From assembly GCA_046757025.1 (NCBI GenBank), contig JBHHXN010000064.1, positions 1 to 25,740 on the forward strand: a stretch of 25,740 nt of DNA. Reading direction: 5' to 3'. The stretch's first letter is position 1. The number at the start of each line of letters is the position of its first letter. Position numbers and translations under genes: made by a program. This DNA comes from a bacterium (GTDB taxonomy: Bacteria; Zhuqueibacterota; Zhuqueibacteria; Oceanimicrobiales; Oceanimicrobiaceae). Of the stretch, positions 12,321-25,727 are shown piece after piece. Below the pieces are notes generated by a model. That model ran no database searches, was not told the origin of the DNA, and was given only the letters and a program-made list of their open reading frames with translations.

Positions 12321-13346
12321 ATGAAATCCTACTTTCTGGTGCAGCCTGGGTGTATTGAATTGCGGGAAGTGCCGACACCGAAACCAGAGCTTGGAGAACT
12401 GATCATCAAAGTGGAAGTCGCACTGACATGCGGCACAGATTTGAAAGCTTTTCGACGCGGCCATCCCAAAATGCCCATGCCAACACCATTTGGACACGAA
12501 TTTTCGGGCACCATAGTGGATGCAGGTGCCAGCGCCAACGGCTACTCCGAGGGCGACGCGGTGATGGGCGTTCCCACCGCGCCCTGCGGAGACTGCTACT
12601 TCTGCCGAAGAAATCAACAAAATTTGTGTTCGGACACCATGAAAAATATGGTACTGGGCGCCTATTCTGAATTCATCAAAATACCTCGTCAAATCGTGGA
12701 AAACAATTTGTTTCACAAGCCGGATTTTCTTTCGTACGAATCCGCCGCCATCATCGAACCGCTGGCTTGTGTGGTGCACGGAATGGAACCGCACACCATC
12801 CGCGAAGATGACACGGTTCTGATAATCGGGGCTGGCGGCATCGGTATGATGCACATTCTTTTGGCCCGAGAAAAAGGCGCAGGTAACATCCTGATTGCCG
12901 GTAAACACGCCGGACGTCTGGCGCTTGCCAAGGAACTGGGCGCGAATTTTACCATCGACGCCTCCGAAGAAAACAACCGCGAATGGGTGCGGGAGTTAAC
13001 CCGGGGGGTTGGCGCCAACTGGGTCTTCGAATGCACCGGCCGGCCAGCAGTTTGGGAACAGGCCGTGACCATGGCTGCCCGAGGCGGCACCGTGGTTTTG
13101 TTCGGTGGCTGCCCGACGGGTACGGAAGTCACATTTGACACCGCCCGCCTGCACTACGATGAAATCTCGCTGGTTGGGTCATTTCACTTCACACCCCAGG
13201 ATGTGGCAAAAGCTTATCAATTGTTAGTGGAAAAACGTTTGGATGTTCAGAAACTCATCACAGACAATTATCCCCTATCAGACCTTGAGCGCGCGTTTGA
13301 TCTGCTCATCCATGGAAAAGGAATAAAGTTTGCCATCCAGCCTTGA
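12321..13346 (+). CDS. Zn-dependent medium-chain dehydrogenase (sorbitol/threonine DH-like) A
   Basis: CGTD, GHE, structural Zn CGDCYFC..C, EPLAC and GAGGIG. ATG at 12321 follows GGAG. Confidence 0.92.
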   Translation: MKSYFLVQPGCIELREVPTPKPELGELIIKVEVALTCGTDLKAFRRGHPKMPMPTPFGHEFSGTIVDAGASANGYSEGDAVMGVPTAPCGDCYFCRRNQQNLCSDTMKNMVLGAYSEFIKIPRQIVENNLFHKPDFLSYESAAIIEPLACVVHGMEPHTIREDDTVLIIGAGGIGMMHILLAREKGAGNILIAGKHAGRLALAKELGANFTIDASEENNREWVRELTRGVGANWVFECTGRPAVWEQAVTMAARGGTVVLFGGCPTGTEVTFDTARLHYDEISLVGSFHFTPQDVAKAYQLLVEKRLDVQKLITDNYPLSDLERAFDLLIHGKGIKFAIQP

Positions 13347-13383
13347 AATTAATTCTGTTTTTTTTAACGTGAATTCTGCTGAA

Positions 13384-14460
13384 ATGAACAAATCGTCTCT
13401 TTATGAGAGGCAAAAATCCTCTGGCGCTGAGCTTGATTCGTTTTATGGATACCCTCTGCCCGGGAGCCACGGCAATGTCGCAGCAGAATACACAGCGGTT
13501 AAAAAGCAAATTGCAATCATGCACTGCCCTTACCTGAGCATGTTGAAAATCTCAGGTCCGGACCATCTGGACCTTTTGCACCGCATGACCACCAACGAAG
13601 TCCGTCATCTCAAAAGCGGTGAAGGTCAAATAAACTTGTTCACAAATGAAAAAGGGCGCCTGATCGACCGGGTGCTGCTGCACAAGGAACCGGATTTCGT
13701 GAGACTCTTTACCAGCCCGGCACACGCAGACCAAGTCAAAGCCTGGATTGAAAAATTCATTTTCATTGAAAATGTCAAAGTAGAGGATTTAACTCCCCAA
13801 TTTGAATCAATAAAATTGCTCGGCCCGCAAGGCCCGCTTTTTTTAAGTCAGCTATTTGCAAGCGATTTTAACGCTTTGCCACAAGCTTGCTTTAAAACGG
13901 TAACGTTTTTTAATGAGGAATTGCTCTTTACACGCCTGGACAATCTGAGGATTCCGGCCTTCTCCGTGGTTGTGAAAAAAGAAATCATCCCGCGTTTGTG
14001 GGATTTTTTCCTGGAGCATGGCCAAAAAACGGAACTGAAACCGTTGGGCGAGACGGTTCATGAAATCCTAAGAATTGAAGCGGGTTGGCCAATTTTAAAC
14101 AAAGATTTCGATGATCAAGTAAATCCCCATGAAGCGCGCATGCTAACTTACGTCGATTTTAACAAAGGATGCTACATCGGACAGGAAGTCATCGCCCGGC
14201 TGGACACCTATGAAAAGGTGAAAAAATATCTCATGGGCGTAATTTGGGACGGCGATTCCGTTCCGAAATCGCAAACCCCCATTTGCCACGGCGACGAAGA
14301 AATTGGTCACCTGACCAGCGCTGCCTTTTCACCGGCGCGGCAAAAAACCGTCGCCCTAGGCTACATAAGTTCAAAATTTCTCGAAACAGAGGGGGATGTG
14401 CAAATTAAAACCGACGACCAACTCATTACCGGCCGGCTGATTAAACCGCCTATCGTCTAA
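13384..14460 (+). CDS. YgfZ/GcvT-family folate-binding protein
   Basis: Signature KGCYIGQEVIAR, LRIEAG and a GcvT-like N-terminus. The start is uncertain (ATG 13384 chosen). Confidence 0.88.
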   Translation: MNKSSLYERQKSSGAELDSFYGYPLPGSHGNVAAEYTAVKKQIAIMHCPYLSMLKISGPDHLDLLHRMTTNEVRHLKSGEGQINLFTNEKGRLIDRVLLHKEPDFVRLFTSPAHADQVKAWIEKFIFIENVKVEDLTPQFESIKLLGPQGPLFLSQLFASDFNALPQACFKTVTFFNEELLFTRLDNLRIPAFSVVVKKEIIPRLWDFFLEHGQKTELKPLGETVHEILRIEAGWPILNKDFDDQVNPHEARMLTYVDFNKGCYIGQEVIARLDTYEKVKKYLMGVIWDGDSVPKSQTPICHGDEEIGHLTSAAFSPARQKTVALGYISSKFLETEGDVQIKTDDQLITGRLIKPPIV

Positions 14461-14472
14461 AATGTTGAATCT

Positions 14473-15501
14473 ATGAAAGCGGCAAAACTATACCAATTAA
14501 GCGACATTCGAATAGAAGAAATCCCAGTACCTGAAATCGGGGAAAACGAAGCGCTGGTGCGCATGAAAGCGTGCGGAATCTGCGGCAGCGACACGATGGA
14601 GTGGTACGTTAGCAAAAAAGCGCCGTTTATTTTGGGGCATGAACCCACCGGCGTCATCGAAAAAGTTGGGGGAAACGTACACAATTTTAAAGCAGGTGAT
14701 CGGGTGTTTGTGCACCACCACGCACCGTGCTTTGAATGCAAATTCTGCTTAAAAAAACAGTACTCGCTCTGCAAAACCTGGAAAGCTTCAAGAATCGATC
14801 CCGGCGGCATGGCCGAATATTTTTGCGTACCCATGACCAATTTGCAGGGCGACACGTTTAAATTGCCGGCATCCCTCTCTTTTGAGGACGGCGCCTTGAT
14901 CGAACCCACCGCCTGTGTGGTGAAATCATTTCGGCGTGCCGGTTTACAACAGCAGGACCGCCTACTGATCATCGGCCTGGGTGTGATGGGGCAGACTCAC
15001 ATCCTACTGGCCAAACATTTTGGTGTAGAGCAAATAATCGCGGCCGACCGGGTTCCCTACCGATTAAAGCAAGCTCAGGAATTCGGGGCCGATGCCGTGG
15101 TGAACGTGGCAACAGAAAATCTCGCCGACCGAGTTAAGCAGCTCACCAAAGGCCAATTCGCCGATGTGGTGATCGTGGGACCCGACAACACCGCCGCCAT
15201 GCAGACCGGCATAAGCTGTGTAGGTAAGGGGGGAACGGTGCTTTTTTTCACCCCCGCTCCGGAAAACGAAATGCTCAGCATTCATCCTTATCATCTCTAT
15301 TTTAACGAGATAAATTTGATCAGCAGCTATTCCTGCGGACCCGACGATACCCGTGAAGCGTTTCAACTAATAAAGCAGGGCGTGATAACAGCTAAAAAGT
15401 TGGTGACCCATACCTTTCCTCTTAAAAAAATTGAACAAGCGGTGGCTGTCATGCTGCGGGCACAAGATTCCTTGAAAATATTGATTGTGAATGAACGATG
15501 A
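14473..15501 (+). CDS. Zn-dependent medium-chain dehydrogenase B
   Basis: CGICGSD, LGHEP, CFECKFC..C, EPTAC, GLGVMG and AAD. Confidence 0.92.
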   Translation: MKAAKLYQLSDIRIEEIPVPEIGENEALVRMKACGICGSDTMEWYVSKKAPFILGHEPTGVIEKVGGNVHNFKAGDRVFVHHHAPCFECKFCLKKQYSLCKTWKASRIDPGGMAEYFCVPMTNLQGDTFKLPASLSFEDGALIEPTACVVKSFRRAGLQQQDRLLIIGLGVMGQTHILLAKHFGVEQIIAADRVPYRLKQAQEFGADAVVNVATENLADRVKQLTKGQFADVVIVGPDNTAAMQTGISCVGKGGTVLFFTPAPENEMLSIHPYHLYFNEINLISSYSCGPDDTREAFQLIKQGVITAKKLVTHTFPLKKIEQAVAVMLRAQDSLKILIVNER

Positions 15502-15869
15502 GTGCGATTCATAAATTTAAAAACCGGGACGGCGGATTTTGTTGGGACGGTGTAGAAATTCAACACTATTCCACCGAACAAGCTGCAAAGGTCACAAAAC
15601 AGGTTTTAATTGGAGCTCGCGACGGCGCCGGCAATTTTGAAATGCGTTACTTTGAGTTAGTCCCACAAAGCCGCACTTCTCTGGACCAGCATGAACACGA
15701 TCATGGGGTCATGGTGGTGCGCGGCCGTGGCAAAGTGCGGATAAACGAACAACAATCTGAAATTGAATACGGAGATGTGGTTTATATTTCTGCTAACGAC
15801 CTGCATCAATTTGCAAACGATTCCGAAGAACCCTTTGGATTTATCTGTATTATTCCACCCAAAAGTTAA
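15498..15869 (+). CDS. Cupin-2 domain protein
   Basis: MRYFEL, HEHDH..(V)RGRG and GDVVYI...HQF metal motifs. ATGA overlap with the upstream dehydrogenase. Confidence 0.9.
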   Translation: MSAIHKFKNRDGGFCWDGVEIQHYSTEQAAKVTKQVLIGARDGAGNFEMRYFELVPQSRTSLDQHEHDHGVMVVRGRGKVRINEQQSEIEYGDVVYISANDLHQFANDSEEPFGFICIIPPKS

Positions 15870-15884: not shown

Positions 15885-17117
15885 ATGGCTTTAGACTACC
15901 CCAAAATTCGCTACGTTGACGTCATTCCGATTGAAACCCACAAAGGACAAATGATCGGACTGCGTGACCCTATTGGCGTCGCCCCTGAAATGTTGCTGAT
16001 TTCGCCGGATATTTTTTATCTACTGCGGTTTTTTGATGGAAACCACTCCAAACTGGATTTGCGCTACAAATACATGCAAGCATTCGGCCAGTTTCTTTAT
16101 GAAGAACAATTGTCGCACATTCTTACCAATTTAAACACAAACTTTTTTTTAGAAAACGAAAACTATCACAACCGGCTGGCAGCGATTGAGAATGAATTTA
16201 AAGAGCAGCCCATCCGGCCGGCATTCCACGCGGGTCAGTGTTATGAAGCCAACCCCACGAAGCTCAAACAACAGATCGATGCCTTTTTCAGCAGTCCAGA
16301 AGGCGCTGGCTATCCACGCCAGAATGTGAAAAAATGCCCTATCAAGGGGTTGATCGCACCGCACATCGATTTGCGAGCCGGCGGCGCCTGCTACTCATAC
16401 GCGTACAAATCGCTGGCCGAATCCGACGGCGCCGAGTGTTTTGTCATTTTAGGCACGGGTCATTCGGGCTTGCACAATTTATATTCCACGTTGGCAAAAG
16501 ACTTTGAAACGCCTTTTGGCCGTGCCAGGTGCGATTTTGAACTTATTGATTTATTGAAAACGAACTACAGCGGCGACGCCAACTCGGAGATACTCGCGCA
16601 TAAATCCGAACACACCATTGAATTCCAGCTGGTTTTTCTGCAGCATCTTTATCAAGAAAAAAACGATTTTACATTTGTACCGATTTTGTGTTCGTTTTCC
16701 TACCACATGTTAAATCGGGAGCAATTTCCACAAGAGCGCAAAATCATCGATGATTTTATTTCGGCTTTAAAAAAGACCATCAAGCAAATCGGTAAAAAAG
16801 TCTGTTTGATTGCCAGTGTGGATTTGTCGCACGTGGGACCTCGCTATGGAGATCGCGAGAAACCGGATCAGGCCTTCATGCAGCGGGTCACCAAAGTCGA
16901 TCAGGAAATACTCAAAACGATTGAAAGGCTCGACAGTGTGGGGTTTCACCAAACCATCGAAAAGCAAGAGGACCGTTTTCGAGTGTGCGGCTATTCTTCC
17001 ATTTACACGTTGCTGAATGTTATCGACGCCGAAAAAGGGCGATTGCTGAATTACTCCAAAACCGAAGTCGATGCACAACATTCGACGGTTACTTTTGCCA
17101 GCATGGATTTCAAGTGA
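15885..17117 (+). CDS. amrB: MEMO1/AmmeMemoRadiSam protein B (long form with ~105-aa N-terminal extension)
   Basis: RPAFHAG..Y, IAPHID, ILGTGH, FETPFG, EHTIEFQL, ASVDLSHVG and VCG. SD AAGGAG. Confidence 0.88.
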   Translation: MALDYPKIRYVDVIPIETHKGQMIGLRDPIGVAPEMLLISPDIFYLLRFFDGNHSKLDLRYKYMQAFGQFLYEEQLSHILTNLNTNFFLENENYHNRLAAIENEFKEQPIRPAFHAGQCYEANPTKLKQQIDAFFSSPEGAGYPRQNVKKCPIKGLIAPHIDLRAGGACYSYAYKSLAESDGAECFVILGTGHSGLHNLYSTLAKDFETPFGRARCDFELIDLLKTNYSGDANSEILAHKSEHTIEFQLVFLQHLYQEKNDFTFVPILCSFSYHMLNREQFPQERKIIDDFISALKKTIKQIGKKVCLIASVDLSHVGPRYGDREKPDQAFMQRVTKVDQEILKTIERLDSVGFHQTIEKQEDRFRVCGYSSIYTLLNVIDAEKGRLLNYSKTEVDAQHSTVTFASMDFK

Positions 17118-17144: not shown

Positions 17145-17525
17145 ATGAAAAGCCAATCCCAACAAACCGCTGCCGAATTGAGCGAATTTTTCCCGGAGGC
17201 CTACCTCAAAAAAGCGGTGAAAGTGCTGAAATTGATCAGTGAGGAGAGTAAACTCCGCATCATGCTGCTTCTGGCAAAAGGCGGGCCCTGCCGGGTAACC
17301 GAAATTGCGGAGGTGCTGAATATCAATCAGACCACCATCAGTCACCATCTTTCGCTTTTACGCAATGCGGAGCTGGTCACCAGCAACCGCGAGGGTAAAA
17401 ACATTTTCTACGATATCAACGATACCCTCTGGCGCGAGATGGGCAAACAGTTTTTTAATTATCTTCAAAAAGGCAACGACATTCATTTTCTGGGGAAATT
17501 CGTGTTGAAGCGGTTGGGTAAGTGA
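17145..17525 (+). CDS. ArsR/SmtB family transcriptional regulator
   Basis: KLRIMLLL...CRVTEIAEVL...QTTISHHLSLLRNAELV...REGK..FY. Confidence 0.9.
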   Translation: MKSQSQQTAAELSEFFPEAYLKKAVKVLKLISEESKLRIMLLLAKGGPCRVTEIAEVLNINQTTISHHLSLLRNAELVTSNREGKNIFYDINDTLWREMGKQFFNYLQKGNDIHFLGKFVLKRLGK

Positions 17526-17735: not shown

Positions 17736-19715
17736 TTAGAGGTTCAAATTCGCTTTAACCCAGTTTTCCAGGCCTCCCATCTTGATCAATTCCTGCGCGG
17801 CGGTACCTACCGCTGGGAAAGAATATTCTTTTCCCTCAGCCTCCACTGACGCCCTTGCAAAGTCAACCCGAGCGGTGATGCCCGTGCGCACCGTGAGTTG
17901 TTCTGACCCAAATTTCGATTTTAAATCCGCGATCAGCTCAGGCACTTCCAGGGTGAGAAAACCATTGTTTAAAGCATTTCGTTTGTAAGTTTCGCTAAAA
18001 GAGCCGGCGATGACCAGCGCGATGCCGCGATATTTTAGAGCCGTGGCAGCCTGTTCCCGAGAGCTGCCGCTGCCAAAATTGAATCCTCCTGCCAGGATGT
18101 CGCCTTCCTGCACCCGATTTTTAAAATTTTCATCGTAATTTTCCATCACCACCTGCGCTTGTTGTTCCGGTGTGAAATCGTCGATGTAGGTATATTTACC
18201 CGGATAAATGCCGTCGGTATTGAGATTATCCTGGTGACAGAAAAGCAGCGCACCCTGCAGGCTTTCCGGGAAACCAGCGATGATTTTGATGCAGCTGCCC
18301 GCCCTTTGCGGCCGTTCATGGAGGCGAATCTCACCCCAGGGCCGGGTTTGGCTCCAATCCCCTGGATAATCGATAAAGCCTGCCAGAGCAGAAGCCGCTA
18401 CCACCGCTGGTGAGCTCAGGTAGGCTTCTGCGTTGCGGGAGCCCATGCGGCCTTTAAAATTGCGATTGGTGGCGGAAACGCCCACTTCACCGTCTTTTAG
18501 GGTGCCCGTTCCCAGGCCAATGCACGGTCCACATCCCGGCGGCAGCGGTATGGCGCCCGCTTCCACAAGTGCCTGCCAGTCACCGCGCTTTTCGCTATCA
18601 GCCTGTACTTCGCTGGAAGCTGCCGCCACGTAGAGCTCGACGCCTTCGGCGACTCTTTTGCCGCGCATAATGTGAGCCGCGGCAGTGAGATCTTCCACCC
18701 GGCTGTTGACACACGAAACCAAATACGCTTTGTGGATTTGAACCTTGCGCTTGCGGATCTCCGATATCGGAGTCATATCTTTCACGGTGTCCGGACCGGA
18801 AACGTGCGGTTCCACCGTACCCAGATCCATCGTGATTTCTTTGGCATAAAACGCATGGGCATCAGCGTTGAGTGTGGTTAGCTCGTTTTCCAGTTGCGCA
18901 ATGCGCTGCTCATTGACACGTGGATGCTCACCACGGCCATCTGCGTCCGAGGGCACTCCAGCCAGCCCGCGTTTGCGGATGGTTTCGGCCCTTTGGCGCA
19001 GCCAGTTGATGGTGATAGCATCCACTCTGAAAACGCCGGCCAAGGCGCCCCATTCCGTTGTCATGTTGGCGATGGTCAGTCGTTCATCGATAGACAAATT
19101 CTGCACACCGTCCCCGGTAAACTCCACCACGTGATTCAAAACTTCGTCCTGATTGAACAACCCGCACAAAGTGATGATGACGTCTTTGCCCGTTACGCCG
19201 GCTTTCAACTCACTTCTGAGCGTCACTTTTGCCACCGGCGGCACCTGCCACCAGGTGCGTCCGGTGGCCCAGATGGCGGCGGCATCCGTGCGCACGATGG
19301 GCGTACCCAGACAACCGATTCCTCCGTACATGTTGGAATGGCTGTCCGAGGCCACCACCAGGGCGCCGGGCCAGGCATAGCCTTCTTCCACCATCACCTG
19401 ATGACCGATGCCGCGACCAGCAGGATAAAAATCTACGCCCATTTCTGCGGCAAATTGCTCGATGGCGGCATACTTTTGCAGATTCTTTTCGCTGGTATTT
19501 TGAATGTCGTGATCGATAGTGAAAATCGGCTGCCGTGGAAAGGCGACATTCGACGCACCGATGCTGCGAAACTTCGGAATCACCGCGCCGGTGTTGTCAT
19601 GGGTCATGACATGAGCGGGTTTAATGGAGATGTAATCGCCGGCGTGAATTTCAGTACCCGCTTCTACATCGACAGCAAACCGCTGGGCAATTTTTTCAAT
19701 CATGGTTTGCGGCAT
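17736..19715 (-). CDS. lysF: Homoaconitase (single-chain, fused large+small aconitase-family domains; LysF/Lys4-like)
   Basis: MTHDN, IDHDIQN, GRGIGHQ, ASDSHSNMYGG, RTDAAAIWATG.TWW, Fe-S cysteines VSCVNSR and GCGPCIGLG, SATNRNFKGRMG, and swivel domain NLNTDGIYPGKYTY / NFGSGSSREQAA. Confidence 0.85.
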   Translation of the reverse strand: MPQTMIEKIAQRFAVDVEAGTEIHAGDYISIKPAHVMTHDNTGAVIPKFRSIGASNVAFPRQPIFTIDHDIQNTSEKNLQKYAAIEQFAAEMGVDFYPAGRGIGHQVMVEEGYAWPGALVVASDSHSNMYGGIGCLGTPIVRTDAAAIWATGRTWWQVPPVAKVTLRSELKAGVTGKDVIITLCGLFNQDEVLNHVVEFTGDGVQNLSIDERLTIANMTTEWGALAGVFRVDAITINWLRQRAETIRKRGLAGVPSDADGRGEHPRVNEQRIAQLENELTTLNADAHAFYAKEITMDLGTVEPHVSGPDTVKDMTPISEIRKRKVQIHKAYLVSCVNSRVEDLTAAAHIMRGKRVAEGVELYVAAASSEVQADSEKRGDWQALVEAGAIPLPPGCGPCIGLGTGTLKDGEVGVSATNRNFKGRMGSRNAEAYLSSPAVVAASALAGFIDYPGDWSQTRPWGEIRLHERPQRAGSCIKIIAGFPESLQGALLFCHQDNLNTDGIYPGKYTYIDDFTPEQQAQVVMENYDENFKNRVQEGDILAGGFNFGSGSSREQAATALKYRGIALVIAGSFSETYKRNALNNGFLTLEVPELIADLKSKFGSEQLTVRTGITARVDFARASVEAEGKEYSFPAVGTAAQELIKMGGLENWVKANLNL

Positions 19716-19834
19716 GGTCACATCTTCCTATTTTTTAATTTTGTGAAGCGTTAATTTATAGTAACTCGTCACCCAGTTTTGTCATCCAGCCGGACGCTTG
19801 CTTTTCTATAAAATTCATGGCCATTTTTCGTTGA

Positions 19835-21538
19835 CTATAAAAACTGTCTGGCAAAATAACGGGCCGTCAGTTTCTCACCGGTGGCTTTTTCAATCATATC
19901 ATTCCAATAAAATTGCTTGCCCGGCTTAAACACCTCTTCAACGAGATATTCTCCCACCGACTTCTTACCCGCAAAACTTTGTGGCTGCGAGTCGTCAACC
20001 TCCAGCACATGGTTGATGATGTAATAATACAGTTGCGAGGCCAGCAATTCTCCCATCAGATAGTTGTGATAATAAGCCGGATAGAGCGCTACATGGATTT
20101 TGGCTGCCCAGTCCGGCGCATGGCGGTTTGCCGGGCGGGCGACCATCTGATATTTTTCAACCAGCTCCCACCAGAGATGATTCAAATCCTGCTGAGGATT
20201 TTCATACATACTCTTTTCAAAACGATACATCACCTGCGCCCAGCGGCTGAACACCAGTTGCTCGAGCCGCAGCGACTTGAGACTGGCGTCGGCGAGGCTC
20301 TGAATTTCCGATTCCGAGACTCCCAACACATCCCGTAACCAGGCCGGGTTGGAAGCAAAGCGTCCAAACAGCATGGCGATAGCTTCGGTGGTAAACGTGT
20401 GAGCCGGCTCCCGCAGTACCCAGGGTAAGTTGCGATGGTTGAATTTGTCATACACTGCATGCCCGAATTCATGTAGCATGGTGTTCATCCAATTGTAATT
20501 AGGTTTCACGTTGCAAACCACTCGCACGTCCCCCTGTTTGTCGATATCGATGCAGTAAGCATGCTGATATTTGCCCTCTTTTTCGAACAGGTCACTCTTC
20601 GCAATGAGATCATCGATGGGCAAACCGAGACTGGCGTAGTAGGATTTGGTGATTTCCACCACATCTTTATTTTGGAATAATTTATCCAAATCCACCGGAT
20701 AAATCCGCGGCGCTTCCTGGAAAAATCGGTTTTGATAGTGCCAGGGTTTGAGCTGTTCTTTCGGGATTTGGTATCTGGCAGCGAGGTAGTTATCAACATC
20801 CGATTTCACCTCCGCGAAAGAGTCGCGAGTCAAGGTATCTAATTCATTAAAAAGAGATTCTATCTCTTCGGGATCCTGTTCGCTCAAAGAAAGCTGCATG
20901 GTGTGATAATTATCAAATCCCAATTCCTGTGCCGCTTCATTGCGCATTTTCACTAATTTCAACACATCGGCTGCAACCACTTCTCCGATTTTTTTACTCG
21001 CCAGCCAGGCTTTTTTTAATTGTGCTGAATCGGTTGAATTTTTGAGAAGGTCTTCGATTTCGTTGTCGGTCAATTTCTTACCATCGATTTCCGCTCTGAA
21101 GGTGTTGTATTTTTTTTCTAACTCGCTCTGGAAATCGATCATTTGTTTGAGCTTGTCTTCATCGATCTGTTTCGAGAGGTAGGCATTATAAAGCACCTCT
21201 AATTGTCTTTTTAACAAAGGATTGGAAATGGCGTTTGATTGTTTAAGTGTGGATAATTTAACAAAATCTTCTTTCGACGCATAAATTTTACTCAGTTGAA
21301 ATTCCAGATCGGCCGACCTTTTGTAATCCTGTTCAGCGCCGGAAATGGTGGCCTCAAAATAAGCCAGCGCCTGCTCCTTGCTTAAATCGATGACTTTGGC
21401 TTCATACTCACTTAAAAATCGTTCAAAATCCCGGGTCATTTCTGTTTTCTCCTGATTTCCACAATTCGCGAACAATACGGCCATCAACAAAATCATCGTC
21501 GTAAAAATATTCGTAAATGGCGATTTAATGTTTTTCAT
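19835..21538 (-). CDS. Gluzincin metallopeptidase of M2/M3 type, predicted lipoprotein
   Basis: HEFGH zinc motif with downstream TEAIA glutamate; D.A.K.H...YPAYYHNY; signal peptide ending LFAN-C. SD GGAGG. Confidence 0.85.
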   Translation of the reverse strand: MKNIKSPFTNIFTTMILLMAVLFANCGNQEKTEMTRDFERFLSEYEAKVIDLSKEQALAYFEATISGAEQDYKRSADLEFQLSKIYASKEDFVKLSTLKQSNAISNPLLKRQLEVLYNAYLSKQIDEDKLKQMIDFQSELEKKYNTFRAEIDGKKLTDNEIEDLLKNSTDSAQLKKAWLASKKIGEVVAADVLKLVKMRNEAAQELGFDNYHTMQLSLSEQDPEEIESLFNELDTLTRDSFAEVKSDVDNYLAARYQIPKEQLKPWHYQNRFFQEAPRIYPVDLDKLFQNKDVVEITKSYYASLGLPIDDLIAKSDLFEKEGKYQHAYCIDIDKQGDVRVVCNVKPNYNWMNTMLHEFGHAVYDKFNHRNLPWVLREPAHTFTTEAIAMLFGRFASNPAWLRDVLGVSESEIQSLADASLKSLRLEQLVFSRWAQVMYRFEKSMYENPQQDLNHLWWELVEKYQMVARPANRHAPDWAAKIHVALYPAYYHNYLMGELLASQLYYYIINHVLEVDDSQPQSFAGKKSVGEYLVEEVFKPGKQFYWNDMIEKATGEKLTARYFARQFL

Positions 21539-22914: not shown

Positions 22915-24189
22915 TCACTTGTGCAATTTTAACAGAACTTTCTGACCAAAATCCTGTTCAAATTCATCATTGGTTTGGTAAACAAAACCAAAGGTCGCCT
23001 GCCAGATCGCGGCTTTTTCCATGCAAAGATACATGAATACTTTTCCGTGCCAGGGGCGGAACGCCTGGTACATGGTTTTGAACAACGCAATTTTGATGTC
23101 GTCCGGGTAGGTCAACTTACCGTGCGGGTCCGGCACCATTTCCATCTGCAGAGTTTTGGTGGCGTTGCCCAGCTTTCGAATTTTATTGATAACGGGTTTG
23201 ATCAAAGTGACGGAGCCGAACGAAAGGAACAGCACCTCTTCGGGGAGAAATTCCTGCAGCAGAGTCGTGGCGATTTGGGGGTAAGCTTGCTGCCATCCCT
23301 CGTAATAAACCATCGGATGAAAATGAAAAGCCACTTTGATCCCTTTCTCTCGAACCGAACGAGCTGCCGATATCCGCTCTGACAAATCCGCGGTAAAATG
23401 CTCTTCGTTTTGAATGATCGTAGGGGTGTTTAAAGACCAGCTGCACACCACATTTGAAGGAATGCGATATTGCATAAAATAGTCGATGTTTTTGGACTTG
23501 GTTTTAAATTCCAGTAGAATGTTGGGGTTGTCAGCGGCGAACCGACACAGAGCATCCAGATTGCCGTTGCGGTTGCCCCACGACAGAGAGTCGGATGCCT
23601 GGCCGGTGCCAAAATGATAAAATCGCTGGGGATCAAGTTGAATGGCTTTTAACTTTTTTTCAAAATCCGCATCGAAAACGAACTCATCGCTGTAAAACGT
23701 CTGAATGGTGCAATAGGAACAGCCAAACACACAATTTTCCACCGCATCGATAGTGCGCAAATTACAACAAACCGTGTCTTCGGAAGCCACCGGACACATG
23801 CCGTGAATCTTTTTGTCCATCTGCACAGTGGAGATTTTATATTTATCCCTTTGCTGCGGTTTTGGCAGTCCATTTTGGGGATAGGCTTTGGGTCGATGTT
23901 TCAATTCTCGCACATGGGCTCGCAACGCCTGCAACAGTTGCTTTTTAGCAGCCACGCCATTTGAGCTGAATTGCCTTTCTCGGCTCAGCCACCAGGACGG
24001 CAAACCGCTTTCTCTCCACATGAACAAATCCCGACAAATCTCCACGACCTCTCGAAACTCTTGAAACGTGAATCGGTGAGTAAATGCCAAACGCTTGATA
24101 AACTTCTGCTGGTCTGGATTTAACCGGGCAAACAACTCCTGCTTTTCGAATGATTGAAATTTCAAATCGTAATCAATTTTGGCAGCCAT
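22915..24189 (-). CDS. Spore photoproduct lyase-like radical SAM protein with N-terminal extension
   Basis: NCVFGCSYC, GQASDS, LEFKTKS, WSLN, ERI.AA, FHFHP and YLCME. ATG at 24189 (the ORF-track extension to 24390 overlaps the 75-aa gene). Confidence 0.82.
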   Translation of the reverse strand: MAAKIDYDLKFQSFEKQELFARLNPDQQKFIKRLAFTHRFTFQEFREVVEICRDLFMWRESGLPSWWLSRERQFSSNGVAAKKQLLQALRAHVRELKHRPKAYPQNGLPKPQQRDKYKISTVQMDKKIHGMCPVASEDTVCCNLRTIDAVENCVFGCSYCTIQTFYSDEFVFDADFEKKLKAIQLDPQRFYHFGTGQASDSLSWGNRNGNLDALCRFAADNPNILLEFKTKSKNIDYFMQYRIPSNVVCSWSLNTPTIIQNEEHFTADLSERISAARSVREKGIKVAFHFHPMVYYEGWQQAYPQIATTLLQEFLPEEVLFLSFGSVTLIKPVINKIRKLGNATKTLQMEMVPDPHGKLTYPDDIKIALFKTMYQAFRPWHGKVFMYLCMEKAAIWQATFGFVYQTNDEFEQDFGQKVLLKLHK

Positions 24190-24215
24190 GCAATTCTTTT
24201 TACTTCGAATGTCCT

Positions 24216-24443
24216 CTACAGAGCTTTGAATTCGCCGGTTAGTTGTATTTCTACTGGTATGCCTTCGACGGTTTGCGGAATTTGTGCGCGAATTTGCGGT
24301 TTGTCTTCTTTCACCGAAACGATGATTCCCACGACTTCCCCGGACGTCATGCCGATACCCACCCCCACCACGCCCGGCATAGCCATCCATTTTTGTTCGT
24401 ATTTGCGCTTGACATTTTTTATTTTAATAAACTGCTCAGACAT
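24216..24443 (-). CDS. 75-aa stand-alone homolog of the N-terminal domain of the adjacent protease
   Basis: PGVVGVGIG..IIVSV..IPQTVEGIPVEI..TGEFKAL aligns with protease residues ~5-84. Confidence 0.8.
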   Translation of the reverse strand: MSEQFIKIKNVKRKYEQKWMAMPGVVGVGIGMTSGEVVGIIVSVKEDKPQIRAQIPQTVEGIPVEIQLTGEFKAL

Positions 24444-24725: not shown

Positions 24726-25727
24726 TCACGGTAAATTTACCTGCAACGCTTGAAACACGTTTTCTATGCGATTGATGATGGTACTGTTGGTGCTGCCGGC
24801 AAACAACAATCCTACCAGTTTATTATCTTCGCTCAGTACGGCCGACCCACTGTCGCCGCCCTGGCTCACGGCGCCGGCCATTAGCTGATCCACAAAGGTC
24901 GCAACCTTGTTCGAACCATAACTGACCCGGGAAGTAACGTCGATCTGTAAAATCGAGCCGGTGGTAAACCCCGTGGTGCGGCCGCTCTTTTTGATGCTCA
25001 TGCCCAGGGTGCCGGTTGCGGTACCACCCAGGGCGCCGATATTCAATATTTCATTTTTAACATCGCTTTCAGAAATGGGTTCCGCTATGGCACAATCTAC
25101 CAGATTGTCTGCGGCGGCGGCACGCATGGGCTGCAAACGAGTTTGGCTTCCCAGCAATTTCGCCAGCCCGTTAAGGATGGCCGCCGTGGCGTTGCCGATG
25201 GAGCAGGGAGTGGACCCCTGATCAAATTCAATGGGGACAAACTCGCTCAGCCGGGCAATCAGATCCTGAGCGCTGCTGCCGCCGTCGGCGGGGCCGGGCT
25301 GCAAAATCGCATCTCCCACTGAAGCGTCGTTGCTGTTGGCCAGCACATGATTGTTGGAAAGGATAAACAGTTTGCCGTTTTTCTTCACCAAAAATCCCAG
25401 GGTGCCGGCGGTGATTTGAAAATGCCCGATGCTCACGCCGCCGGGCGCCGGCCGAAACTTGTCCGTGGGCTGCTGCAGAGCATGAATGATCCCGGTGGGG
25501 TACACATCGGTTGGAATGTTTTGCATTTGTGATGGAATGAGTTCGCGCTGGGATAACGCCTGTTTGGTTTTTTTGGATTCCACCGAGCAAATAATGGACA
25601 GCTCGGTAGTTGGTTTGCCTTCGGTTATTTTGTAACCGATGCCCGTTGCCACAACATTGGGCTTGGAAAACAATTCTCTTTTAATTTCAGGTAAAAGTTT
25701 TCGTGTATCTTCTAAATTTGTAGCCAT
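24726..25727 (-). CDS. Nal1-like trypsin-fold (S1) serine protease, no signal peptide
   Basis: RPAPGGVSIGH..ITAGTLG, catalytic His in SNNHV, Asp in VDCA, KSGRTTG and Ser in GGDSGS. SD GAGGAG. Confidence 0.85.
   Translation of the reverse strand: MATNLEDTRKLLPEIKRELFSKPNVVATGIGYKITEGKPTTELSIICSVESKKTKQALSQRELIPSQMQNIPTDVYPTGIIHALQQPTDKFRPAPGGVSIGHFQITAGTLGFLVKKNGKLFILSNNHVLANSNDASVGDAILQPGPADGGSSAQDLIARLSEFVPIEFDQGSTPCSIGNATAAILNGLAKLLGSQTRLQPMRAAAADNLVDCAIAEPISESDVKNEILNIGALGGTATGTLGMSIKKSGRTTGFTTGSILQIDVTSRVSYGSNKVATFVDQLMAGAVSQGGDSGSAVLSEDNKLVGLLFAGSTNSTIINRIENVFQALQVNLP

Follow-up and report, generated by a model that had tools for sequence, protein, structure and literature searches.

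How does a bacterium supply 1-deoxyxylulose 5-phosphate (DXP) to the methylerythritol phosphate (MEP) pathway of isoprenoid synthesis when the entry enzyme, DXS, cannot be found in its genome? The available text of a survey of 4,400 genomes counts 181 that have the MEP pathway without Dxs alone, with a route suggested for nine and the other 172 unexplained (PMC10663253). The question is raised here by a contig of 25,740 nt (JBHHXN010000064.1, assembly GCA_046757025.1), analysed whole and hereafter called the window, from a member of the Oceanimicrobiaceae, hereafter the host. One operon in the window encodes two zinc-dependent medium-chain dehydrogenases/reductases (Zn-MDRs), here called A and B, and a small cupin. 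In the best model, which we consider on balance probable, B oxidises 5-deoxy- or 5-methylthio-ribulose 1-phosphate to a dione and A reduces the dione to DXP or 1-methylthioxylulose 5-phosphate (MTXu-5-P), the pair replacing a RuBisCO-like protein (RLP). We hold the net reaction itself, with its two steps in either order, to be somewhat more probable again. Several independent genomic signals converge on this one predicted reaction, and two named genes, one substrate and one intermediate are now testable for the isoprenoid question in DXS-less bacteria.

A comparable conversion is described for Rhodospirillum rubrum and Rhodopseudomonas palustris, where the available text of the reports assigns the methylthioadenosine (MTA)-isoprenoid shunt to MtnP, MtnA, a DeepYkr RLP, the cupin Rru_A2000 and Met17 (PMC5893883, PMC4334135; also PMC6302742). 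The predicted net conversion to MTXu-5-P or DXP is the same, the cupin is related, and mtnA and dxr are present in the host. Unlike that shunt, the 1,3-isomerisation is predicted to proceed by oxidation and reduction on two Zn-MDRs instead of on an RLP, the cupin is an optional part and, in the host, a divergent one, and MtnP was not found in the host. Because RLP is absent, A and B would work like the shunt without being a member of it. The available text of a review of alternative DXP routes covers YajO/RibB, an arabinose route and the MTA shunt, and no dehydrogenase pair appears there (PMC8791446). A literature search with sparse coverage of subscription journals turned up neither the pair nor the LsrF link reported below, so a prior description is possible.

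Dehydrogenases A and B and their predicted reaction

Dehydrogenase A (341 aa; 12,321–13,346, forward strand) and dehydrogenase B (342 aa; 14,473–15,501, forward strand; subfamily B1) are 30% identical. Both carry the Zn-MDR domains PF08240 and PF00107 and fall under every NCBIfam equivalog cut-off. With the threonine dehydrogenase profile NF003808, A scores 189 bits and B 161 bits against a cut-off of 380. The closest named homologues of B (~70% identity) are labelled candidate division KSB1, and the B family as a whole exceeds 5,000 sequences currently labelled sorbitol or iditol dehydrogenase. A cultured organism, Dissulfurispira thermophila, also carries a B1 gene. Sorbitol dehydrogenase (1pl6/1e3j), threonine dehydrogenase and galactitol-1-phosphate dehydrogenase (4a2c) share the fold and the catalytic and structural zinc motifs with A and B, but the structures matched by B reach no more than 32% identity and the invariant residues differ, being W44, Y45, H83 and Y286 in B and K42, F288 and H289 in A. 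An AlphaFold model of B (predicted local distance difference test 94.7) has a generic MDR fold.

A FastTree phylogeny of 170 MDR rows (168 kept of 210 after removal of near-duplicates, plus the two window proteins) resolved A, B1 and a further clade, B2, each with support of 99. B1 and B2 are sister clades, joined together with four intermediate rows at 96. In both, W44, Y45, P110, D192 and Y286 are invariant and position 151 is basic, features that are not typical of A; the W44-Y45 pair (14,602–14,607, forward strand, in the host gene) is also invariant in the intermediate group and is absent from A. Asp192 lies in the cofactor loop of B, IAADRVPYR (15,037–15,063, forward strand), which is NAD-type, and is present in all 112 B-family rows. 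The corresponding loop of A, IAGKHAGR (12,894–12,917, forward strand), lacks an acidic residue and is NADP(H)-type in the host copy. The initial annotation had read a division of cofactors from these two loops, and it stands for the host copy without extending to the A family, in which 42 orthologues comprise 18 with Gly plus a basic residue, 13 with Asp, 10 with GLE or GFE and one unparsed.

Each catalytic step set out here is one we infer; what was observed is the genes with their clades and neighbourhoods, their co-inheritance, and the gene content of the host. A nucleoside phosphorylase and MtnA would convert 5'-deoxyadenosine to 5-deoxyribulose 1-phosphate, or MTA to 5-methylthioribulose 1-phosphate. 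B, the predicted 5-deoxy/5-methylthio-ribulose-1-phosphate 4-dehydrogenase, would then oxidise C4 with NAD+ to yield 3-hydroxy-2,4-pentanedione 5-phosphate (P-HPD) or its methylthio analogue. A, predicted to act on the C2 carbonyl as an NAD(P)H reductase, would reduce the carbonyl adjoining the phosphate, probably with NADPH in the host copy, to give DXP or MTXu-5-P. Together these two steps would achieve what the R. rubrum RLP does overall. An Rru_A2000-type cupin, where present, would remove the methylthio group; with the deoxy substrate a cupin would not be needed. The deoxy route is the likelier use in the host, because sources of MTA were not found there and its cupin is atypical. The sister enzyme B2 would make the same dione, which LsrF would cleave to dihydroxyacetone phosphate (DHAP) and acetyl-CoA.

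Co-inheritance of A with B1

Orthologues of B (59–71% identity) occur in 12 of 22 relatives from the same family or order and in none of 38 further genomes of the same class. A is present in 10 of these 12 B1-positive relatives and in none of the 10 B1-negative family members; in the two genomes with B1 and without A, of 74% and 85% completeness, B stands at the beginning of a contig. A second sample comprised 221 genomes from the phylum of a 'Deltaproteobacteria' metagenome-assembled genome (G063), with the B family called at E ≤ 1e-85 and at most nine candidates scored per genome. Seventy-one carry a B-family gene. B1 is found in eight; A accompanies it in every one, in four cases from a separate locus, and A is absent from all 15 B2-only genomes sampled from 63. 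Overall, A accompanies B1 in 18 of 20 genomes and occurs in none of 25 without it. A and B1 are thus a co-inherited module, even where unlinked. A further whole-genome draw, around genome G286, comprised nine genomes.

Among the best 80 of 552 metagenome B1 loci, 33 have A in the vicinity of B and 46 have a cupin there. Forty loci with at least 2.5 kb on each side divide into 14 with A and cupin, 12 with cupin only, 7 with A only and 7 with neither. No relative was found on viral contigs, and plasmids held only distant B-like genes (<40% identity), in sugar clusters. Six longer proteins were examined for A-B fusions and none was a true one: tandem two-MDR proteins were rejected, having an A-like half at 36–40% and another half that lacks the B signature. 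Tandem proteins of this kind (P0126–P0130, 609–731 aa, with the A-like half C-terminal) suggest another, more distant dehydrogenase pair.

The sister clade B2 and LsrF

LsrF is encoded at 35 of 40 B2 loci, in 30 of them within 500 nt and on the same strand, and at none of 100 B1 loci, while A occurs at none of the 40 B2 loci. The division holds genome-wide, with LsrF in 58 of 65 B2 genomes against none of six B1-only genomes. In Chloroflexota a B-family gene was found in 27 of 241 genomes and lsrF at seven of eight B2 loci; one of the eight B2 genomes also has a distant A-like gene.

According to the available text of its description, LsrF cleaves P-HPD to yield DHAP along with acetyl-CoA (PMC6410053), the reaction also given in the name of family NF006081. 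By chemical reasoning from its structure (CH3-CO-CHOH-CO-CH2-OP), P-HPD is the C4-oxidation product of 5-deoxyribulose 1-phosphate, and reduction of its second carbonyl gives DXP if the configuration at C3 is kept. The mutual exclusion of A and LsrF fits the prediction that B makes the dione and either A or LsrF consumes it. The same linkage favours oxidation as the first step, since the sister clade tied to LsrF points to a 2,4-dione and not to an arabitol phosphate; the initial annotation had placed reduction first, through arabitol phosphate, and on this point we depart from it. The predicted intermediate is shared with the LsrG/LsrF degradation of autoinducer-2 (AI-2), and the gene adjoining B2 encodes a true LsrF, but here P-HPD would come from a dehydrogenase and not from LsrG, and LsrF is absent from the host and from B1 loci.

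A wider reading, which we advance tentatively and rate at slightly under even, is that B1 and B2 belong to a widespread, unrecognised family of 5-deoxy/5-methylthio-ribulose-1-phosphate 4-dehydrogenases that makes P-HPD from S-adenosylmethionine (SAM) waste and feeds two undescribed pathways, through A to DXP as an RLP-free entry to isoprenoids and through LsrF to acetyl-CoA and DHAP. If so, A can be encoded alongside ispA, shc and dxr, and its branch would help to supply DXS-less bacteria such as the host. Many 'orphan' lsrF genes of anaerobes would then have the production of acetyl-CoA and DHAP as their actual function, which would account for lsrF genes outside lsr operons. The substrate would gain a third fate besides aldolase and RLP, and more than 5,000 sequences labelled sorbitol or iditol dehydrogenase would gain a function. 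Engineers would have a route to DXP that avoids DXS, and isoprenoid synthesis in some bacteria without that entry enzyme would be easier to explain.

Four loci (L375, L379, L382 and L383) belong to LsrF genomes without a B-family match and have a long open reading frame after lsrF. One such frame was scanned; it encodes a bifunctional class II aldolase/short-chain dehydrogenase (PRK08324, 899 bits against 686), which may replace B2.

Links to methylthioadenosine and isoprenoid genes

Linkage to mtn genes, which the initial annotation had proposed as a check on the dehydrogenases and the cupin, gave a mixed picture, direct links being seen at one B2 locus and one A-like locus. At the former (L437, genome G488), lsrF-B2 converges on mtnP, rlmD and mtnA, with LsrF, MTAP and MtnA all above cut-off. 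At the latter (L498, genome G469), a fragment of mtnA (E 8e-25), cut by the contig end, comes immediately after an A-like gene (41%). At two further loci (L369 and L370, genomes G264 and G142) lsrF lies ~3–4 kb from mtnA-mtnP, and in genomes G519 and G404 B-like and A-like genes stand upstream of a major facilitator/spermidine synthase gene.

Within the G063 phylum sample, B-family genes and class II aldolases are complementary: 35 genomes have both, 36 the B family only, 137 the aldolase only and 13 neither, an odds ratio of 0.09 from statistics that ignore kinship, with PF00596 including enzymes other than Ald2. Of the 214 genomes with mtnA, 11 have neither, against 31 expected under the same statistics. 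This bears on the DHAP shunt, which in the available text of its description runs through MtnP (or MtnN plus MtnK), MtnA and the class II aldolase Ald2 (PMC10986504). The entry metabolites are predicted to be identical and the B2–LsrF branch would also end in DHAP; the difference is that no aldol cleavage takes place here, the C2 unit being predicted to leave as acetyl-CoA (B2 with LsrF) or to stay in DXP (A with B1), and that the distribution is complementary to class II aldolases in this one phylum sample.

In genome G257, A belongs to an hpnH-ispA-A-shc-dxr operon, each named gene above cut-off. The same order recurs in G227, where hpnH and shc were identified by hidden Markov model (HMM) and ispA and dxr by tblastn. 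No dxs was found in the 40 kb covered in either genome. The two are probably close kin and may count as one event. B1 adjoins hpnH at seven loci.

The host genome (95% complete, 374 contigs) encodes MtnA (TIGR00512, 445 bits against 279, at C9:32814) together with DXR and IspD through IspH, all above cut-off. DXS was not found in it by HMM, nor by tblastn with confirmed DXS; RLP (PF00016) had no match in the host or in the 22 family and order relatives; LsrF had no tblastn match in the host, and mevalonate-pathway motifs were not found in its genome. The host also has 37 frames with a radical-SAM-like cysteine motif. This gene content (mtnA, dxr and ispD to ispH without RLP and DXS) and the position of A between ispA and shc-dxr in two genomes lend support from genomic context to the net isomerisation proposed in the initial annotation, in which B acts at C4, A at C2, and the predicted activity stands in for RLP and leads to DXP. 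A same-class relative without A points the same way: it carries speD-speE followed by an RLP-cupin fusion (genome G046).

That fusion, a single 538-aa protein that with speD-speE occupies L126:838–3,792 (on G046:C20), is a fused form of the classic MTA-isoprenoid shunt. The host has a second IF-2B-family isomerase (G000:C61:2,602–3,570, L038), closest to ribose-1,5-bisphosphate isomerase and under cut-off.

The cupin

The cupin (123 aa; 15,498–15,869, forward strand) is coupled to B, the two reading frames overlapping through ATGA, so the translational coupling noted in the initial annotation is borne out. So are its motifs: an N-terminal F-x-W-D-G-V-x4-Y arm, VTKQVL, MRYFE and HEH are all present. 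The arm is Rru_A2000-like and is combined with H65, H67, H69, H103 and C117 and a short, TM1459-like C-terminus ending FICIIPPKS. The best matches in the PDB are 3ibm (E 3e-18) and 3jzv, which is Rru_A2000 (2e-17), ahead of TM1459 (1e-14); a second structure-database comparison gave 3ibm, 3kgz and 3jzv at E 3e-25 to 1.5e-23, with TM1459 not far off at 2.6e-19.

Methylsulfurylases have been delimited, in the available text, by an identity above 45% with the cupin of R. rubrum and a gene beside RLP (PMC5893883). The host cupin falls short on both counts, with identity well under half of positions in an alignment judged by eye and no RLP neighbour. A C-terminal RD(R/K)P tail, an unpublished diagnostic that we propose here, is present in 46 of 56 B1-linked cupins and also in the RLP-fused cupin. 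B1-linked cupins of the main clade match 3ibm, 3jzv and 3kgz only (E 2e-40 to 1e-29). In a quick tree of cupins sampled from the collected loci, from which Rru_A2000 itself is absent, the host cupins fall between the main clade (support 100) and a TM1459-type clade (98), and the RLP-fused cupin of G046, beside speD-speE, nests within the main B1-linked clade on a long branch.

Given its missing tail, a match to Rru_A2000 that is only modestly better than that to TM1459 and its place outside the main, Rru_A2000-like clade, we do not file the host cupin as the methylsulfurylase that the initial annotation had proposed. Judged from its sequence, it may be a divergent methylsulfurylase, or an isomerase or dione-cleaving enzyme; Dke1 is a precedent for a dione-cleaving cupin. 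Nor is a cupin the core part it had been taken for. An Rru_A2000-type cupin was not found in any of five A+B1 genomes, in a search run without a positive control, and the cupin is an optional part of the module. In genome G084 a tailed cupin and then an O-acetylhomoserine sulfhydrylase (MetY) gene lie ~2.3 kb from B-A; in G124 the distance from MetY to the cupin is ~5 kb. The same sulfhydrylase re-uses methanethiol in the known MTA-isoprenoid shunt, as stated in the available text (PMC5893883). A weak search for cupin fusions, which missed the RLP fusion of G046, returned only two longer proteins, with an unrelated N-terminal domain.

An N-terminal Cys-(Asp/Glu) extension is common among the tailed B1-linked cupins (L142, L146, L056, L175 and L191) and aligns with the linker of the RLP-cupin fusion (L126:3,355–3,792); speculatively, it might supply a resolving thiol within the protein or be left over from the fusion. 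In Ktedonobacteria-like genomes (L438–L444 and L503), a host-type cupin and an intermediate B gene stand between PtsI/dihydroxyacetone-kinase genes and transketolase, with A-like genes elsewhere, once directly upstream of mtnA.

Contrary evidence and alternative explanations

A number of observations weigh against the reaction we propose for A and B. The source of the substrate in the host is one: MTAP, MtnN and MtnK were not found, there being just two phosphorylases of the PNP-I inosine/guanosine type; an MtaD-type deaminase was not among the four of seven host amidohydrolases scanned; and speD, speE and a close metY had no matches. The host has one class II aldolase, a possible consumer of the substrate, at the start of contig C16, off the mtnA contig, its family assignment being under cut-off; in the G063 phylum, 35 of the 71 B-family genomes likewise retain one. 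Neither mtnA nor mtnP occurs at any of 100 B1 loci, and among 152 wide B-family loci mtn genes are clear only at L437, with a weak MTAP-like gene at L431. Since mtnA is near-universal in the G063 phylum (214 of 221 genomes), its co-occurrence there says little. Hopanoid adjacency is not specific to A, because in genome G219 an lsrF-B2 pair abuts a hopanoid cluster that retains dxs.

Nor does A+B1 track the loss of DXS among the 22 family and order relatives. Of the 12 with B1, six have DXS, one has it in part and in five it was not found; it was also not found in six of the 10 without B1, which must therefore obtain DXP by another route. The enzymes and the cupin add further points. A fold search with B returned generic MDRs, at PDB identities of at most 32%, without a clue to the substrate. 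The cofactor split is not conserved, 13 of the 42 A orthologues being NAD-type, so the obligatory pairing of NADPH and NAD assumed in the initial annotation is given up. The C3 of the dione can enolise, which, we reason, could scramble the stereochemistry. Where 3jzv and 3ibm have a C-terminal C-x-V-(D/N)-x-x-R-D-(R/K)-P tail, the host cupin has none, host-type cupins group near Chloroflexota cupins that accompany the intermediate B group in sugar-gene contexts, and the cupin is missing at the A-B loci of three family genomes (G001, G002 and G018). For scale, in the relatives G001–G060 DXS is above cut-off in 34 of 60 and DXR in 57. The six family members alike without DXS, A, B and RLP suggest a further DXP source.

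The sugar-gene contexts raise an explanation that we consider unlikely, in which A and B are a redox epimerase/isomerase pair catabolising a polyol or deoxy-sugar phosphate of environmental origin, unconnected with SAM by-products, and the host-type cupin is a ketol-isomerase or dione-cleaving enzyme. Among characterised proteins, the nearest are dehydrogenases of sorbitol, xylitol and threonine. Around the intermediate B group and the host-type cupins are transketolase, DhaKLM/PtsI, xylulokinase-like kinases and galactitol-type phosphotransferase-system or ABC transporter genes (L001–L003, L006, L438–L444 and L447–L450), the plasmid B-like genes (35–38% identity) are in sugar clusters, and mtn genes are lacking at all 100 B1 loci. 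However, neither the 80 metagenome loci nor those of the family show a recurrent transporter or kinase family next to B1, and housekeeping genes surround both B1 and B2. Polyol catabolism would also leave unexplained the position of A within ispA-shc-dxr, the exclusive association of LsrF, the adjacency of mtnP and mtnA, and the Rru_A2000-type cupins at 46 of 56. The AI-2 role of LsrF suggests instead a module that recycles AI-2-type diones, either P-HPD or phosphorylated 4,5-dihydroxy-2,3-pentanedione (P-DPD), from imported AI-2 or the breakdown of ribulose 5-phosphate, the dehydrogenases reducing them to DXP and the cupin isomerising them as LsrG does. By chemical reasoning P-DPD reduced at C3 would also yield DXP, and FGGY kinases that score under threshold as AI-2 kinases, together with LsrR-like regulators, occur at some loci of the intermediate group. 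Yet kinase and sugar-transport families do not recur beside B1 and B2 in clustered neighbourhoods (lsrK and lsrG were not searched by model), MtnN was not found in the host, and the mtnP/mtnA links and the complementarity with class II aldolases would go unexplained. We regard this recycling as distinctly unlikely.

The absence from the host of both DXS and a recognisable MTA or 5'-deoxyadenosine phosphorylase could also mean that the pair is a full bypass of DXS from a central metabolite such as a pentulose phosphate, with LsrF in B2 genomes running in reverse (DHAP and acetyl-CoA to P-HPD) and pulled by reduction. A adjoins ispA and dxr, one lsrF-B2 pair abuts shc, and the flux of radical-SAM waste may, we reason, be too small for all isoprenoids. 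This is quite improbable: six of 12 B1 relatives retain DXS while six DXS-less relatives lack the pair, B2 is NAD-type, G219 has lsrF-B2 together with dxs, and no deoxygenating enzyme travels with A and B. There remains the order of steps. Zn-MDR arabitol-phosphate dehydrogenases interconvert D-arabitol 1-phosphate and D-xylulose 5-phosphate, and A might first reduce the ribulose 1-phosphate to 5-deoxy- or 5-methylthio-arabitol 1-phosphate, which B would oxidise at C4 with the same net result. The same two bonds would be used, a labile dione would be avoided, and the host copies of A and B are NADP-type and NAD-type. What decides us is B2, which occurs without any A (none at 40 loci or in 15 genomes) and beside an LsrF that requires the dione; with 13 of 42 A orthologues NAD-type as well, we give this order the least weight of the four alternatives, and retain oxidation by B followed by reduction by A.

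Neighbouring genes and the remainder of the window

A, a YgfZ-like gene, B, the cupin, a MEMO gene and an ArsR gene form one run of six forward-strand genes with intergenic gaps of at most 27 nt. The initial annotation had the two dehydrogenases and the cupin in one operon, correctly as to genes and coordinates, and passed over the gene between A and B. This encodes a YgfZ/GcvT-like folate-binding protein (363 aa; 13,369–14,460, forward strand; start GTG at 13,369 or ATG at 13,384; TIGR03317, 80 bits against a cut-off of 49). It stands between A and B at most loci of the host family and is absent in G012; among the 80 metagenome B1 loci it was found at four, at one of them weak and 5 kb distant, and it is probably a lineage-specific passenger. 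Downstream of the cupin the operon runs on (gaps 12–27 nt) into an AmmeMemoRadiSam-B/MEMO-family gene (15,885–17,117, forward strand; TIGR04336 above cut-off), which in synteny is kept beside B in the host's family and order only, and an ArsR/SmtB-family regulator (17,145–17,525, forward strand; NF033788 above cut-off), the last of the run. All three are lineage-specific neighbours. In the host family the YgfZ-like and MEMO genes are retained alongside A and B, and their family names tie both to Fe-S or radical-SAM systems, which may be relevant or not.

An NCBIfam profile scan found neither mtnP nor mtnA in the window, in agreement with the initial annotation. The reverse strand encodes a homoaconitase of the fungal-like TIGR00139 type, with its large and small subunits fused, in this bacterial host (17,736–19,721; 857 bits against 530), a lipoprotein-like M2 (ACE-family) metallopeptidase (19,835–21,538; PF01401 above cut-off), a spore-photoproduct-lyase-like radical SAM protein of 491 aa with a long N-terminal extension (22,915–24,390; under cut-off) and a trypsin-like protease with a weak match to the NAL1 N-terminal domain (24,726–25,727).

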